IMG/VR virus record: IMGVR_UViG_2778261420_000020 | Coordinates: 1 to 8,171 of that record | Reading direction: 5' to 3' (one strand) | Origin: a virus | Lineage: Duplodnaviria; Heunggongvirae; Uroviricota; Caudoviricetes | DNA: 8,171 bases | Part shown: piece after piece, positions 1-8,171 of the stretch | Layout of the letters: every line of letters begins with the position of its first letter | How positions within the stretch are numbered: the first letter of the stretch is position 1 | Notes under the pieces: model-generated | Database searches by the model: none | Told to the model about the DNA's origin: nothing | The model's input: the letters and a program-made list of their open reading frames with translations, nothing else | Made by a program: the position numbers and the translations under genes

Positions 1-744
1 TCAGATTCCCTGGTGAGTAAGAATTTTACTTTCTGAACTCCTCTGAGAGTATTGACTTGGAGAAACACCAAAATAACGTCTAAATACATAAGTAAAGTAT
101 GAGACACTGGCATAACCACAGACCTTAGCTACTTTACTAATAGGATAACAACGAGTGCTGAGTAAATATTCAGCCATTTGCATCCTCTCATCAAGTATGA
201 TCTTACTGAATGATATCCCCTCTTCTTTCAATTTCCTCTTTAGTAAACTTTCGCTGAGATATAATCTTGATGATATATCCTTAAGACGCCATGGTGCAGA
301 TAAATCCGTATGAATAATCGTTTTAACTTTAGCCCCTGTGCTTTTCAAACATCCAAACAGAAATACTCCAAATTGTTTTTCAGAAGAAAATGCAGAGAGA
401 CATGTAAAAGCAATAGACTCATCAAAAATTTCTATGTATTCAGCACAGTGATTAGCCCAACTAATTAATCCTTTAATTAAACTGAAGTCAGCAAAGTTTA
501 TTTTTAAATAAGATGGATATTCCCTACAATCAGAAATATCCCTTAAGTTATTAGCTTTCAAATAGCGACTAATAAACTCAGCGCCAAAATCCGCCACTAT
601 CACTCTTTCAGGATATGTCAGAAAAAAATCTCTAGAGCTAGAGTCGACAAGTACAGATGAACCTCTCTCCAGAAACACACTCTCTTTTCCGAAATAAACA
701 TCAAAGGACTCCAAAATCAATATAACTGAACATGTGGTTGCCAT
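1..744 (-). CDS. AraC/XylS-family transcriptional regulator (complete, 247 aa; stop codon is the first three bases of the window)
   Basis: The C-terminal ~100 aa carry the two helix-turn-helix units typical of AraC/XylS regulators (e.g. ...SRLYLSESLLKRKLKEEGISFSKIILDERMQMAEYLL... and ...ISKVAKVCGYASVSYFTYVFRRYFGVSPSQY). ATG start at 742..744. The gene is AT-rich and lies outside the tRNA-fragment boundary, so it is flank rather than prophage. Confidence 0.85.
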   Translation of the reverse strand: MATTCSVILILESFDVYFGKESVFLERGSSVLVDSSSRDFFLTYPERVIVADFGAEFISRYLKANNLRDISDCREYPSYLKINFADFSLIKGLISWANHCAEYIEIFDESIAFTCLSAFSSEKQFGVFLFGCLKSTGAKVKTIIHTDLSAPWRLKDISSRLYLSESLLKRKLKEEGISFSKIILDERMQMAEYLLSTRCYPISKVAKVCGYASVSYFTYVFRRYFGVSPSQYSQRSSESKILTHQGI

Positions 745-1328
745 ATCATCCGCCCAATTTAACTGAAACCAGGATGAAGTATATGCATATAAAGTTCACT
801 TTGCCAAACTTCAGTATAAAAAACCACATAAAAAATAGGGTGTGATAAAAAATACCGTAACAATAAAGCAAAGGATTATAAATTCCGTTACAGTTACAAA
901 TGATACTCAAGAAACAATTCCTTAGGAAAAACTTATTTACAGCCAATAAGTAAGACACTTATATGATATCAAGTTTTCATAAAACATAACTAGGCTAAAT
1001 AGCTGCGCCTAATACCGCTACACTTTTGCCAGCCCATGTTTGCCTCCGGGTATTGACCCCTTCTCTACGCAACTTCAGTTCCCACCACCAACTTTGCGGC
1101 AGCTTTGTAGGATAAATGTCTAAAAGAATAATGGTAACCGATAAGAAAACGACTGAATAACTGCAGATTTTCGCTCAAAACCTTCCTGTCAGATCCATAG
1201 CGAATCAAGTGCTGAATGTCACAGTATCGAACAGAAAACAGTGACGATCTAACCCTTCAAGAATATTCTACGATTGTTCTGTTTAGGAAAAGCAAGGCGG
1301 GAAGTCGGGAGATAAGTCATTGATAAAG

Positions 1329-1474: not shown

Positions 1475-2344
<870 letters not shown>

Positions 2345-2404: not shown

Positions 2405-2815
2405 TCATTTATCTCCGACCGGAAACTTCTTATACAGTGTCGATATACCAACATCATAGATGATCGCCACCTTCTGGCGAGGAACGCCTGATGCAATTAA
2501 TCGTCCGGCCTGCTCCCATTGTTCTGGTGTAAGTTTGGGGCGACGTCCACCAATTCATCCCTGTGCGCGAGCTGCTTCCAGTCCAGCTTTTGTTCGTTCA
2601 ACAATCAGTTCACGCTCCATTTCAGCCAGGGCACCCATCACATGAAAAAAAAAGCGCCCCATTGGGGTACTGGTATCAATTGAATCCGTCAGACTACGAA
2701 AGTTGATGCCTCGTTCGCGCAACTCCTCCACCAGCACGACAAGATGCCACATACTGCGTCCCAGTCGGTCCAGTTTCCAGACCACCAGCGTGTCACCTGC
2801 CGATAATGTCCTATT
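2405..2815 (-). pseudogene. Serine DNA invertase remnant (Pin/Gin/Hin/Cin family): N-terminal ~47 codons missing, including the catalytic-serine region, plus an in-frame TGA at 2555..2557
   Basis: The translation RTLSAGDTLVVWKLDRLGRSM...GINFRSLTDSIDTSTPMGRFFFHVMGALAEMERELIVERTKAGLEAARAQG, then a stop, then IGGRRPKLTPEQWEQAGRLIASGVPRQKVAIIYDVGISTLYKKFPVGDK, is the recognisable Din-family invertase core and C-terminal HTH. The expected N-terminus (...GYVRVSTxxQ...) is not found in any frame. The TGA sits where these invertases have Arg (QGRIGG). Confidence 0.85.
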
Positions 2816-2872
2816 GAAATCAGTGTTAACCTCTACAACCAATTTGCTGGTATTGCCTGGCCTGAAGGTAAA

Positions 2873-3163
2873 ATGCTTGGTGCAGATAGCACTGGACTGC
2901 CCGCTTGGGTCGATGCGCCGCCTCCAACGCATGAAGAGCTTATTGAAATTACTCAATCAGAAAGACAGCTACTAATTAACCAGGCCAACGAATACATGAA
3001 CAGTAAACAATGGCCCGGTAAAGCCGCTATTGGTCGTCTGAAAGGTGACGAACTGGCGCAATATAATTTGTGGCTGGATTATCTGGACGCACTGGAACTG
3101 GTTGATACTTCCGGTGCGCCAGATATTGAATGGCCTACGCCTCCGGCAGTTCAGGCCAGATGA
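2873..3163 (+). pseudogene. Tail-fibre assembly protein, alternative copy (Tfa'/U'-like), 5'-truncated remnant; C-terminal ~96 codons (frame is open back to 2807)
   Basis: The C-terminus ...LWLDYLDALELVDTSGAPDIEWPTPPA matches the conserved Tfa C-terminal motif also present in the intact minus-strand tfa (...ALDYIDALTATDTSTAPDVIWPELPEA). It converges on and overlaps tfa by 29 nt. The remnant is too short to be a full Tfa and abuts the truncated invertase. Confidence 0.6.
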
Positions 3164-3737
3164 CATCCGGCGCGGTGCTGGTATCTGTTGCCGTCAACGC
3201 GTCAATATAATCCAGCGCAACGTTAAGCCGGGTGGTTTCTGCCTGCGTCAGCTTCCGCCCGGCCTGCAATTTCAACTGAATCAGACTAATGGAAACCATT
3301 GCAGCATCAATCAGTGACTGACGCTGTGCTTCTGCCGCGTCTACTGCGGCGCTATGCTGTGCCTCGGTATCTGTCACCCATTTCTCACCATCCCATTTAT
3401 CGTATGGAGATAAAGGGGCGATAGTGGTTGTATTTTCAGGGTAATCACCCGGAGCTGTGATTTCTTTTGATTCTCCTGTTTCAGTGCTATAGACCGTTTC
3501 ACCACGATGGTCTGGCACATATCCCCATGAGTTAAAATCTACAGAACGGCAGATAACATAACCCTCCCTATGTATACCAGGTGCATCCAGGCAGGAATAT
3601 GCCGGGATACCAACACCAACGGCAAGATATTCACTTGAAGTGGAAATATATTCCCGAGTTTCACCATCATAGTTATAAACAGTAATATCCCCTGCCTTCG
3701 TAGCAATAAACTCGCTATTTAATACAGCGTTATCCAT
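3135..3737 (-). CDS. Tail-fibre assembly protein (Tfa / Mu U-like)
   Basis: 200 aa with the conserved C-terminal motif (...LNVALDYIDALTATDTSTAPDVIWP...). It lies immediately downstream of the tail-fibre gene, and its start codon overlaps the fibre stop codon (TAATG). Confidence 0.85.
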   Translation of the reverse strand: MDNAVLNSEFIATKAGDITVYNYDGETREYISTSSEYLAVGVGIPAYSCLDAPGIHREGYVICRSVDFNSWGYVPDHRGETVYSTETGESKEITAPGDYPENTTTIAPLSPYDKWDGEKWVTDTEAQHSAAVDAAEAQRQSLIDAAMVSISLIQLKLQAGRKLTQAETTRLNVALDYIDALTATDTSTAPDVIWPELPEA

Positions 3738-4507
3738 TATGCAGCCCTCACAATGTAGTTAAATGCAACGTTCACCGGGCGAGTTTCATTGGCGGTATTT
3801 GCCACCCTTGACATATCGAAATCAAATGTTGTGACACCATGCCCTCCACTACCTACGCCTGTAACCGCTGTTAATCCAGTAGTCAGATAGTTATTACCGT
3901 TATGACGAAATGGACCATTGGTAACTAAATCTTTAAAAAGCTGAATTTTCCCTATTGAACCAGTGACGTTTTGCATTGCATGCTCCTGTGAAGCCAATAG
4001 AATCCTTCCGGGGTCAATGCCTCTCCCGTCATCCCAGCCACGAATAAACTCACCGCGTAAATCAGGCAATTTATTTGTCGGGTAAGCCTTTGCCAGTTCC
4101 GGGTATTCTTCAGCAGAAAATGCCGCACCGTTGCATTTCAGCCAGCCTGTTGGCGGAGTGGCGGAAGGCCACGGAACAGGCACACCAACGGGTAATGCCG
4201 AACCTTCTCCCAAACCAAGGTTTTCGAGAGCCGTTTTCACCGTGCCATCCGATTTGATATCGCCAAACGGATTCTTGCGGCTTAACAGCAGCGCATGAAG
4301 CGCGGTAAGCAACTGGTCGTTTCGCCCCTTCTCCAGGCTGGCACCGGATGCCTCCACCACGCCACAAAGCTCTTCCTGCAACATGTCAAAGTAGTCATCA
4401 TCAAGATCGGTGGCAGGCGTGCCAGTCTGGGGGTTACCACGGGTAAAACCGTTCTTACCCGCGCCGAACTTATCCTTCTGCGCGGTTTTCGTGTCTATGC
4501 GATGCAT
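3737..4507 (-). CDS. Tail-fibre protein (short side tail fibre with a phage tail-collar domain)
   Basis: A tail-collar-like motif block is present (...[45 protein letters not shown]...). The N-terminal region is typical of inversion-type fibre genes and contains a crossover-like site. Gene order is baseplate, then fibre, then tfa. Confidence 0.85.
4205..4230. other. Candidate invertase crossover site (hix/gix/pix-like 26-bp site) embedded in the tail-fibre coding sequence
   Basis: TTCTCCCAAACCAAGGTTTTCGAGAG contains the conserved AAACC-NN-GGTTT core of Din-family crossover sites (about 20/26 identical to hixL as I remember it). It encodes LENLGLGE at residues 94-101 of the fibre, the expected constant/variable junction. 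Confidence 0.5.
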
Positions 4508-4510
4508 GGA

Positions 4511-5095
4511 TTACTCCGGATATTTAAAAATTACGTAGGTATGCGACGGGCAGAGTTTGTTAAGCACACACTCGACAACGGTGTCACCCCAGATACGCAG
4601 TGCGGAATCACAGGGATCGCCACATGTCATCCAGGTGGTGTTGGTGGCGGCTGGCATGTTGACCTGCCAGTAATACCGCCATTCCGGCGCATTCACCGCG
4701 TCAGTACAGGCCGATGAGCAGGTGAAGGTGCTTTTATCGTATCGCGTGATGGTGGCGTCTTGTCTGCCCAGGGCAGCAAGCTGTGCAAGGTAAAAATCCT
4801 CATTGATGCCGCCCGCCAGGTTAACCTTCGCATCCAGCCGTTGCTGACGCTGGCGAAGGGTCTGCGTTCCCGCAGGAATGCATTCATCCGGCAGGCCGCA
4901 CAGACGCTCCCAGCGGTTTATCAGTTCGGTGGTGGTGCGCGGATCCAGCTCCCGCATCAGGGCATCCGCACGCTGATGAACGCGGGTTAATGACGGTGCC
5001 GCACCGGCAATCGCCGGATCGCTGGCTGACCACGCCGGACCGGGCGGCAACAGTGCCGATAACAGGCGGATGTAATCATCGTTTGTCACGTCCAT
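4511..5095 (-). CDS. Phage tail protein, Mu gp48-like / DUF2313 (YmfQ-like)
   Basis: 194 aa with the N-terminal motif ...[12 protein letters not shown]... characteristic of this family as I recall it. It sits between the baseplate-J-like gene and the tail fibre and overlaps the upstream gene by 10 nt. Confidence 0.75.
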
Positions 5096-6144
5096 GAAAT
5101 CGTCCCCAGTACCGCCAGTTCATTTTTTGCAATGGAGATATTGTCTGCCGGTGCAAGCAACTGATGGCTGTATTCCCCGTTCGCACCGGAAATCGCCTCA
5201 CTGATACGCGATACCTTCAGTTCTCCCTGCGGATAACCATCACGCAGCAGGAACGAACGCAACTCCGCGGTGATGGCAGCCCGTATTTCCGGTGTGTCCG
5301 GCGTCACGCGAATATGAAAATCCACCGTATGTGCCACCGGCCTGAACACATACAAATCAGAGCCTGCCACCGGGGCCAGTGGCCCGATATGTTGTCTTGC
5401 CGCCGTTTCCGTTGATTCTTCCGGAATGGGATTAATCAGGTCACTGCTGGCAATCATCACACCAACAGTTCCCGTTCCCATCCAGTGACGGTATGTCCAT
5501 GCGCGGGTAATGCCGGGCACTTCTTTAGCCCAGACGACATAGTCCCCGTCAGCCCCGCCCTGAGGCGTCCAGTAATAGCGCTCAATGACACGGGCGCGCC
5601 ACGTTTCCAGATCTTCAGTATCAAATCCGCCTGTCAGGGTATCTGCCACACCGGACGACGGCAGACCATTCACCGGCGTGACCAGGATTAATGCCGTACC
5701 GTCGTCAGCGTTACCGACCGCGCCTGCAGTTGAGCAGGCGATCGGCACGCGCAGGACTCCACCGGAGCTGGTTGCATCGGCAGTTGCCGTGTACTGAACC
5801 AGGTCATCGCGCTGAATAACACTCCCGGCGGTCACCTTCAGGCCATCGCTGACGCCTTCCCAGCGCATATACCCGCTGGCAGCTGTGGCACCCTTGCGCG
5901 GACACCGTTTCATCGCAGCATGTCGCGCCAGCCAGGACTCATCGCACAGGTCAGGCAGCATGTTCATTGCCAGATAATCGATGTAACCGTAAACCGTATG
6001 CAGCGCCGCCGCATACACCTTTGCCCGCACGTCTTCATCCATGCGCCGGAGCGTGTCGCTGACGTCCAGCCTGGCGAATAAATCGTTACGGAGCATACTG
6101 ATATTTTCTGCCAGCGTCGGGCGCTGAAATTCACTGTCCGCCAT
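5086..6144 (-). CDS. Baseplate J-like protein (Mu gp47-like)
   Basis: 352 aa; size and position (after the gp46-like gene, before the gp48-like gene) match the Mu-type baseplate order. High-GC coding region with overlapping start and stop codons with its neighbours. Confidence 0.8.
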
Positions 6145-6559
6145 GCGTTATCGCACTCCACAGATCATCAAAAGAAATCATTACCGGTCCGTCACGACGC
6201 CAGAGGGTGATACTGTTACCCAGTTCATTAATCCCGGTGCGGCGGATATCCAGATCAATACGGGACACCACGCCGTCATCAATCATCCATTGCAGGCATT
6301 CGCGGATATACCCCCTTACCGTCAGCACCAGCTGATTGGTCAGTTTGCTGCGCTGAAGCAGCCACAGTCGGGAGCCGTAACGGTCATTCTGTACCGCAGG
6401 CCAGGTATCCCCCCACCATCCCATCGGGACGTCGGCGTTGTCATCAGGCTCCGCCCGCCGCCAGGTGAACAGGGAAATCACCACGGCGCGGGTCAGCGGG
6501 TCCAGCGGTGCGCTGGCACTGGTGCGTTTGCCGTTCACCGTCAGCCACAGTTCCATCAT
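6131..6559 (-). CDS. Phage GP46-family baseplate protein (Mu gp46-like)
   Basis: 142 aa; size and position between the gpV-like and J-like genes. 4-nt overlap with the upstream gene and 14-nt overlap with the downstream gene. Confidence 0.75.
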   Translation of the reverse strand: MMELWLTVNGKRTSASAPLDPLTRAVVISLFTWRRAEPDDNADVPMGWWGDTWPAVQNDRYGSRLWLLQRSKLTNQLVLTVRGYIRECLQWMIDDGVVSRIDLDIRRTGINELGNSITLWRRDGPVMISFDDLWSAITHGGQ

Positions 6560-7104
6560 GCCTCCATCGCTTTATCAGGTTTGTCGGTGTTACTGCCCTG
6601 ACCGTTCTCTCTGTGACGATGCCCGTTATAGGCAAGCCGCATCGCTGACATGGTGGTACCGCCGGAGTCGCACAGGTCTTTCACCTGTCCGGTCACTTCC
6701 AGGTCCATTTCAAAACGTGCTCTGGGCGCATTGCGAAACGTGATCGTTTTACCTGCACCGTCCACCACGATCCCCTCCCGGGTCAGCGTCACAGACTGCC
6801 CCTGATCGTCATAGACAGCCACCTCACCCGTCTGCAGCCCTTTCAGGCGGTAGCGCCGGTCCGACACCGTAACAACCACCGCATGAGAACGGTCGCCATC
6901 CGGAAACAACACCACCGCTTCCGCACCGCTGTTTGCCCTTGCGGTAAAACCGTAGGGTTCAAGATGTTCAACCCCGGCTTTGGGTTCACCGGCAATCAGG
7001 GACACATCCACGGTCTGACATTTCGTGGCGGCACTGATGCTTTTCACCACTGCCCGCCCAATCAGGCCGAGAAGTTGTCGCTGCATGGCTTCAATCGTCC
7101 TCAT
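6556..7104 (-). CDS. Baseplate assembly protein V / spike (Mu gp45-like)
   Basis: 182 aa; N-terminus MRTIEAMQRQLLGLIGRAVV... and size are typical of gpV-like baseplate spike proteins. Start codon overlaps the stop of the upstream hub-like gene. Confidence 0.8.
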   Translation of the reverse strand: MRTIEAMQRQLLGLIGRAVVKSISAATKCQTVDVSLIAGEPKAGVEHLEPYGFTARANSGAEAVVLFPDGDRSHAVVVTVSDRRYRLKGLQTGEVAVYDDQGQSVTLTREGIVVDGAGKTITFRNAPRARFEMDLEVTGQVKDLCDSGGTTMSAMRLAYNGHRHRENGQGSNTDKPDKAMEA

Positions 7105-8171
7105 CAGAACGGGTCCTCCTGTACTCTGGCTTTTTTCTTTTTCCGCGCGCCGGGGGCTTCGGGTTCAGGCAGATAAGCATCAGGTGGGCCGACACGGATT
7201 TCCGTCAGGGTGCCGTTCTGGTCCTGAGTAAACGTGACTTCCGAGACAAGCAGTTCGGTATTGTCGAAACCACAGACCGGATCAAAGACAATCACCCGCT
7301 GGTTGGGCTGCCACAGCGTACCGTTACCCTGTCGCCAGCCCTGCACCACATAGGTGGTTTCATCCGTCCGCGCCGCCCGTTGTCGGGCTTCAAAGTCAGC
7401 ACGCGCAATACAACCTGCCCCCGTGGCCTGCCCTGTCTGCCTGATATACATCGGACGGTAACGGGCAATAAATGCGTCCTCTGTGCGGGCCCGCAGCGCG
7501 GTGGTGGTGGCCTCACCGAAATCATCGTCGTTTCCGGCACGCTGCCCCGCCACCTGGTAAACTGAAAACCGCTCCCGGATACTCTTCTCCGTATCACAGG
7601 AAAGGATGTTTTCCCCGAGTACCAGCGCGGTATGTGCCCGCGTTGAGCCAATACCGCCAATCACCAGCCTGCCGTGCGGGTCGTCGTAAGCCAGCGCCTG
7701 CTGCTGACCGAGTATTTTGTTGATTACCTCAATCACCGTTTCACCGTGATCAGGCTGAACATCAGGAATAACACCCGACGGCGCACCGCTGTTCACCACC
7801 TCAATGCCGAAAGGCGCAGCAAGCGCCTGCGCAATCTGCACCAGCGAGCGTCCGTTAAACTGTGTCGGTTCGGCTGCACAGTCAATCAGGTCAGCGGTCA
7901 GACTACGTCCGGCAATACCGGTGCTGACCGAACGGGCATCGTAACGAACGGGAGTCGCCTCCACCCAGCCGGTGATCACCAGCTCATCACCAATCAGCAC
8001 CTCCACTTTTGAACCGTTTTTAATGCGCGGCTGAAGCGTGGTGATACCCTCATCTCCCGGCCACTGGCGAGTGATCTCCACACTGAAATCCCGCGCCAGC
8101 CGTTCAATACCGGCACCGATGCGCACCGATGTCCAGCCATTCCACTCCCGGCCATTTACCCGTAGCGTGAC
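7104..8171 (-). CDS. Baseplate hub / late control D-like protein (Mu gp44-like); 5'-partial, reading frame open to the window edge
   Basis: The frame has no stop between 8126 and the window end (upstream residues VTLRVNGREWNGWTS...). The 'M' in the ORF track at 8124..8126 is an internal GTG. Position directly upstream of the gpV-like gene and size >355 aa fit a gpD/gp44-type hub. Lys-rich C-terminus. Confidence 0.7.
   Translation of the reverse strand, partial: VTLRVNGREWNGWTSVRIGAGIERLARDFSVEITRQWPGDEGITTLQPRIKNGSKVEVLIGDELVITGWVEATPVRYDARSVSTGIAGRSLTADLIDCAAEPTQFNGRSLVQIAQALAAPFGIEVVNSGAPSGVIPDVQPDHGETVIEVINKILGQQQALAYDDPHGRLVIGGIGSTRAHTALVLGENILSCDTEKSIRERFSVYQVAGQRAGNDDDFGEATTTALRARTEDAFIARYRPMYIRQTGQATGAGCIARADFEARQRAARTDETTYVVQGWRQGNGTLWQPNQRVIVFDPVCGFDNTELLVSEVTFTQDQNGTLTEIRVGPPDAYLPEPEAPGARKKKKARVQEDPF

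Follow-up and report, generated by a model that had tools for sequence, protein, structure and literature searches.

The C-terminal fragment of a second tail fibre assembly gene (tfa′) described here is very probably the edge of a single deletion that destroyed a two-fibre switch, leaving its other edge inside the neighbouring invertase gene, pin. The window (the whole 8,171-nt stretch that was analysed, whose numbering is used unless stated otherwise) is 100% identical to contig NORX01000037.1 of the NCBI E. coli draft GCA_002521845.1. It holds the fibre end of a prophage whose baseplate and tail genes are of the Mu type, with a minus-strand run encoding a Mu Gp44/GpP-like baseplate protein, a Mu Gp45-like protein (baseplate assembly protein V), GP46, baseplate J/Gp47 and Gp48.

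In the order of events that we propose, the ancestor would have carried pin, a crossover site, the variable fibre exon S′v, tfa′, the convergent tfa, Sv, a second crossover site and Sc, arranged as a host-range segment of the Gin/Pin type. One illegitimate deletion of ~0.67–0.70 kb at a CT microhomology would then have fused pin codon 50 to tfa′ codon 27, probably taking the pin promoter and a Fis-dependent enhancer with it. The segment would thereby be frozen with Sc–Sv(B) and tfa(B) expressed, and the tfa′ and pin remnants left behind as putative pseudogenes, the latter drifting on.

A C-terminal remnant of Tfa facing an intact Tfa

The first-pass annotation had placed, at 2807–3163 on the plus strand, the C-terminal portion of a second Tfa. 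That frame is open for 118 residues before its stop, and its translation matches Pfam PF02413 (Caudo_TAP; E = 1.2e-27, 97 bits against a cutoff of 22.1 bits) over profile positions 33–130 of 131. Together with intact 143-aa alleles, the match shows that 116 residues remain from the C-terminal end of a second Tfa. The frame as bounded by stops is real, but position 2807 is just the first codon past an in-frame stop (2804–2806), and DNA homology to the tfa′ of an Escherichia coli C11 prophage (L003) begins at 2811. The remnant, of an allele that we call A, accordingly spans 2811–3163 (+) and comprises the last two bases of codon 27, codons 28–143 and the stop of a 143-aa parent.

Over 117 codons the remnant has no codon differences from the intact alleles of two other E. 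coli prophages (L003 and L004), and window 2811–3300 is 99.8% identical to the intact 143-aa tfa alleles of E. coli C11 and WEM25. The lack of substitutions fits a recent event and is also compatible with selection; it is uninformative between them, because functional genes nearby show the same closeness to their relatives. Aligning the two Tfa proteins of the window, as the annotation had proposed, confirmed that they are related: the remnant is 35% identical to the C-terminal 80 residues of the intact convergent Tfa (E = 2e-12).

Compared with a complete Caudo_TAP coding sequence, the remnant lacks the native start and residues 1–27 of 143, and Caudo_TAP coverage drops from profile positions 20–130 in the intact parent to 33–130. 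No cognate fibre lies upstream: S′v is deleted, and the remnant borders directly on antisense pin sequence. Tfa proteins bind the fibre through a variable N-terminal domain, and a conserved C-terminal helical domain mediates trimerization and assembly (PMC9608196). A PDB sequence search with the remnant returned no matches at E ≤ 0.01, and what we say of Tfa domains therefore rests on Pfam and on that work. By these comparisons the remnant has retained the conserved part of Tfa and lost its partner fibre, and we regard it as a pseudogene fragment.

The convergent tfa (3135–3737, minus strand; allele B) is intact, encodes 200 aa in the expressed orientation (Caudo_TAP E = 1.4e-31) and is annotated tfaE in relatives. 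Its 3′ end overlaps that of tfa′ by 29 nt (3135–3163). This tail-to-tail overlap, noted in the first pass, is a genuine property of such segments, recurring in intact ones (6834–6862 in the O157:H7 prophage L001 described below; 5325–5353 in L003; phage pro483 and a P2-like phage, 2743–2771). Flanking the overlap is an 18-nt inverted repeat (3073–3090 and 3199–3216), found in L001 and L003 too. It is a by-product of an LDY(L/I)DA motif, visible in the tfa alignment, that both tfa genes encode on opposite strands. Compared with L003, tfa(B) has eight codon differences, six of them non-synonymous; codons 63–95 hold five of these six and both synonymous ones, a cluster that may be a recombination patch or a diversifying change in the N-terminal fibre-binding domain.

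A probable deletion joins tfa′ to a truncated invertase gene

The first pass read the remnant as debris of a fossil invertible segment, and in this it was right; what it had not noticed is that the other edge of the deletion lies inside the invertase gene. The pin remnant (2405–2812, minus strand) consists of codons 50–184 and the stop, and as far as window position 2812 its nucleotides are 99.2% identical to L001. Its match to the Pfam Resolvase family (PF00239) covers profile positions 59–143 only. Alignment to the 184-aa PinE of O157 shows that codons 1–49 are gone (MLIGYVRVST..., with the VRVST motif and the catalytic Ser9) and finds five synonymous and three non-synonymous changes in what is left: R71W, R135* and A149E. 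The nonsense change is an in-frame TGA (2555–2557, minus strand) in place of the Arg135 codon CGA; a Resolvase-domain ORF runs from 2555 to 2956 on the same strand. Of the two features expected of an active invertase, the catalytic serine is deleted and the helix–turn–helix (HTH) domain is cut off by the TGA at codon 135, so that the invertase too is a fossil. A run of nine A residues at 2645–2653 (T9 on the coding strand, encoding FFF) is in frame here and is a potential slippage tract; the Phe-Phe-Phe motif, compared at the protein level, is also present in intact PinE.

The junction was defined by a three-way comparison of the window with L001 for the pin side and L003 for the tfa′ side. 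It falls at 2811–2812, a CT shared by both sides as a 2-bp microhomology: the window reads ...GATAATGTC-CT-ATTGAAATC..., the pin parent ...GATAATGTC-CT-GAGCAGC... and the tfa′ parent ...CTGAATCAG-CT-ATTGAAATC.... The two sides have only this CT in common. Missing between them are pin codons 1–49, the pin/S′v intergenic DNA, the invertase-proximal crossover site, all of S′v and tfa′ codons 1–26, a total of ~700 bp in L001 coordinates or ~670 bp when reconstructed with the A-type cassette of L003. The annotation had already listed S′v and the invertase-proximal crossover site as absent, and the full arrangement is indeed present in L001.

In Hin and Gin, the Fis enhancer lies within the 5′ part of the invertase gene. 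The Hin enhancer lies ~100 bp from a hix site (PMC3798978). By analogy, the Fis enhancer of pin would lie inside its deleted 147 nt (L001 5811–5957).

A single surviving crossover site

The fibre gene stf (3737–4507, minus strand; 256 aa, Pfam Collar domain) contains the sole surviving pix-type crossover site, which divides it into a constant part, Sc (4231–4507), and a variable part, Sv(B) (3737–4204). The 26-bp site (4205–4230, plus strand) reads TTCTCCCAAACC AA GGTTTTCGAGAG and has an exact copy in the left site of the intact O157 locus, where its partner is the inverted site at L001 6013–6038. Segments of the Gin/Pin/Cin/Hin type have two inverted sites, and the window has one. The search for an inverted copy, suggested in the first pass, found no second copy in the window when up to 3 mismatches were allowed (0 of 200 shuffles matched), and relaxing the limit to 9 mismatches gave no plausible inverted copy. 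Likewise, 12-kb loci of the same allele each hold a single site and no second one. With one crossover site and no inverted partner, the segment is predicted to be frozen.

A quasi crossover site is present at 959–984 (plus strand; TTATATGATATC AA GTTTTCATAAAA), upstream of a LEM-3-like GIY-YIG domain gene. Such a site is used elsewhere. In two independent assemblies with an intact Pin (L031, 1631–1645; L033, 1310–1324), the invertase-proximal site is joined to the quasi-site at the central AA, a join that inverts the block of pin and the GIY-YIG gene. Our search of the literature on invertase quasi-sites yielded nothing useful. In the window, the quasi-site stands in direct orientation relative to 4205–4230, and inversion would therefore not be restorable through it.

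That Pin-type enzymes in L031 and L033 act on a weak quasi-site raises the idea that the invertase itself made the deletion, by recombining the crossover site with pseudo-sites. The breakpoints do not look like its work. Compared with the 26-bp site they show 13–14 mismatches, which is also the background mode for random 80-mers of the window, and in L001 their distances from the crossover site are ~200 bp and ~470 bp. The dinucleotide at the junction is CT and not the AA core, and the invertase-proximal site is wholly within the deleted DNA, not at its edge. With breakpoint scores at background, we rejected a site-specific deletion by the invertase, which we regard as extremely unlikely.

The GIY-YIG gene (1520–2344, plus strand) lies to the left of the tfa′ remnant, convergent with pin; its place at the prophage end is one that we take to be the position of mom in Mu. 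The 775 bp before it (745–1519) hold short ORFs only, of at most 70 aa and with no family match, and beyond these lies an AraC-family gene (1–744, minus strand). An Rfam scan of the window gave no family matches.

Intact relatives carry the segment in both orientations

A megablast search of 5,426 complete E. coli genomes returned O157:H7 strains in which the entire window is matched at 97–99% identity, with ~700 extra bp. In one of these (L001), pinE (5403–5957, minus strand, 184 aa) is followed by S′v (5988–6398, plus strand), a Gp53-like C-terminal exon, then by tfa′ (6419–6862, plus strand, 147 aa), tfaE (6834–7436, minus strand) and the fibre gene (7436–8206, minus strand), with inverted 26-bp sites at 6013–6038 and 7904–7929. 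A sister assembly (L026) is the same except that 6040–7922 is inverted, exactly between the site centres. The two thus present both orientations of an intact segment homologous to the one from which the window would descend, and from this pair the intact system evidently flips in nature.

The O157:H7 region agrees with the window in its baseplate genes, fibre constant part, pin, GIY-YIG gene and AraC-family gene (97–99% nucleotide identity), in its identical left crossover site and in its tail-to-tail tfa/tfa′ pair with the 29-nt overlap. The window differs from it in missing ~0.7 kb and in carrying another cassette allele. An invertible host-specificity region of a Mu-like O157:H7 prophage has been described for Sakai Sp18 (PMC2669165). 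L001 and L026 represent that region here; L001 is a prophage of O157:H7 that has Mu-type tail genes and an invertible region, and it may be Sp18 itself.

Recurrence of the junction and order of events

A 96-aa Caudo_TAP gene, the called part of the remnant, is on record for 17 public contigs. We used this ORF to retrieve junction contigs from NCBI and Logan assemblies and from ENA metagenomes, and all 8 of the independent contigs examined have the identical 30-mer junction. All long-enough contigs with exactly the same Stf carry the deletion. The exact junction had no matches in GTDB species-representative genomes and was absent from the 5,426 complete E. coli genomes, in which the best contiguous matches start from query position 112 or come in two pieces with ~700 extra bp.

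Invertible regions often break assemblies, and many contigs with intact pin end ~30 bp before it, so that an artefact of assembly or sequencing, such as the collapse of an inverted repeat, has to be weighed. It is scarcely credible here, given that all 8 contigs, which come from different projects and assemblers, have an identical junction; two of the contigs (L009 and L011) have lineage-specific SNPs and are therefore independent samples.

The same contigs order the changes within pin. W71 and E149 occur in all deleted copies and in none of the six top intact cluster representatives. The stop R135* is found in seven of the eight deleted copies examined; in the eighth, L009, the deletion is present but codon 135 is still CGA, which places the stop later than the deletion. 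As read from these copies, the order was deletion, then drift (R71W and A149E), then nonsense (R135*).

A metagenome contig (L008) with the same tfa′/pin junction diverges from the window on its left flank at 1050/1051 (L008 2171/2172), where zinT and a cytochrome-b561-like gene replace the AraC gene. This may be either the end of the element at a second chromosomal site or a rearranged flank; tRNA scans near it found none.

Deletion or imported cassette

The A/B cassette of the window has close counterparts outside the Mu-type backbone. Window 2811–4223 is 99.2% identical to 5001–6413 of L003, a P2-like prophage of E. coli C11, and the similarity stops inside the crossover site, at 4223. This shows that cassettes are exchanged between unrelated phage backbones.

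The tfa′–tfa–Sv block could have been imported from a P2-like phage by one crossover at or near the conserved site and a second, illegitimate one inside pin, in which case a complete A/B segment would never have existed in this prophage. The 99.2% identity to the C11 cassette agrees with such an import, as do the Mu-type flanks of the window (75% identical to L003 in pin, or unrelated) and the cassette of the O157 relative, which differs from that of the window (90.8% identity in tfa/tfa′, with Sv unalignable at 3769–3994). Nor was an intact ancestor with backbone and cassette combined found. Nevertheless, Sv(B)/tfa(B) sit in this backbone in the WEM25 prophage (L013) as well, and identity is even along 3110–8171, at 97.5%; because L013 shares both, the combination is older than the deletion in the window. 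Import also takes two events, one of them illegitimate, where deletion takes one. We consider import unlikely, and the two routes lead to the same final anatomy and function.

Deletion from an intact ancestor is the parsimonious reading, drawn from relatives. We call it parsimonious and not observed because an ancestor with the exact backbone and the A/B cassette was found neither in the 5,426 complete E. coli genomes nor in the contigs examined. Searches through Stf protein look-up, a protein search with the pin remnant and the closest intact Pin contexts also found none.

Other members of the group have lost parts of the region differently. In L013, only the last 54 nt of tfa′ are left (L013 5511–5536, corresponding to window 3110–3163), followed by chromosomal DNA beside dacD, an independent and larger loss of the silent half. 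In GCA_012701365.1 (L017), an IS3-family element is inserted in tfa(B) at ~6154, corresponding to window 3354, in a prophage that is otherwise 99.9% identical.

The 96-aa reading frame

The first pass had suggested that an ATG at 2873 could still allow a 96-aa C-terminal Tfa fragment to be made. This ORF exists (2873–3163, plus strand), running from the first in-frame start after the 2804–2806 stop to the native stop. By alignment its ATG is Met48 of intact Tfa(A), and on the plus strand between 2344 and 2873 no promoter-like site is predicted. With a start that is an internal Met48 and no promoter-like site upstream, we judge translation unlikely: the ORF is most likely an internal-Met artefact and an untranslated pseudogene.

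It might instead be expressed, for example by read-through from the GIY-YIG gene, and act as a fibre-trimerization helper or as a dominant-negative protein towards incoming phage fibres. The frame is intact and unmutated, keeping profile positions 44–130 of 131 and with them the C-terminal helical domain, the trimerization and assembly part of Tfa (PMC9608196). A weak Shine–Dalgarno-like AAGG lies 4 nt 5′ of the ATG, and no plus-strand terminator-like site is predicted between the GIY-YIG gene and the ORF (2344–2873). Against this, Met48 is equally present in intact alleles, and the ATG is therefore not an acquired start. Besides having no promoter-like site, the fragment lacks the N-terminal part that binds the fibre and no longer has its cognate fibre exon, and the region is decaying, not conserved, as the 54-nt tfa′ of WEM25 and the IS in tfa of another relative attest. 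Expression in such a role is improbable. No better are the odds of a more elaborate proposal, in which the read-through product would be a domesticated Tfa domain, retained by the host perhaps to disturb fibre assembly in superinfecting phages with Caudo_TAP chaperones, and, separately, a trans-acting Pin of another prophage would excise the 3.2-kb block between 959–984 and 4205–4230.

Discussion

In the G segment of Mu (with Gin) and the P segment of e14 (with PinE), a constant fibre N terminus is joined to either of two variable C termini, each served by a Tfa of its own. These halves lie tail-to-tail between inverted 26-bp sites, and the invertase gene is adjacent. Inversion of e14 is documented (PMC4272514). 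The window follows the same logic as these segments, but as a dead switch, having one site, no invertase catalytic domain and one half deleted. Our comparisons therefore bear out the G/P-like, Gin/Pin-type part of the first-pass reading. Its term shufflon is misapplied, because the recombinase remnant is that of a serine invertase acting on a single two-site segment. The Rci-type shufflon of R64 has a tyrosine recombinase, Rci, and multiple sfx repeats, whereas the window retains part of a serine resolvase/invertase (PF00239) whose intact relatives have two principal sites.

Two other arrangements resemble that of the window. In Qin of K-12 (pinQ–tfaQ–stfQ), an invertase also stands beside a single stf/tfa pair, without an alternative half or local inversion, and the Qin fibre region is the same kind of decay product. 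The Qin invertase is intact and works in trans on e14 (PMC12529663), whereas that of the window is destroyed and a tfa′ stub is still recognizable. P2-like cassettes, in L003 and phage pro483, hold an intact 143-aa Tfa(A) that is the parent of the remnant; L003 differs in its P2-type backbone, in an invertase ~75% identical and in expressing the A half.

The finding is thus ordinary prophage decay of a known kind and not a new mechanism; its main value lies in annotation and in how prophage decay is read, and it raises no new question. On public contigs of this allele, the ‘tail fibre assembly protein’ of 96 aa and the ‘resolvase’ of 76 aa are two edges of one scar, both pseudogenes to be marked as such. 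Set side by side, the relatives form an erosion series: intact and flipping in O157, a 0.7-kb deletion and then nonsense in the window, near-complete loss of the silent half in WEM25, and an IS in tfa.

A mutation in the invertase alone is complementable, because enzymes of the Pin family work in trans; PinQ, encoded by Qin, inverts the P segment of e14 (PMC12529663). Here the defect acts in cis, with a crossover site and a fibre exon lost, so the invertases of other prophages would not rescue it. The loss of the fibre switch would thus not be complementable by the common Pin-family invertases of E. coli, unlike a simple invertase mutation. The prophage, if otherwise viable, would make just one of its two ancestral fibre types, with its host range presumably locked.
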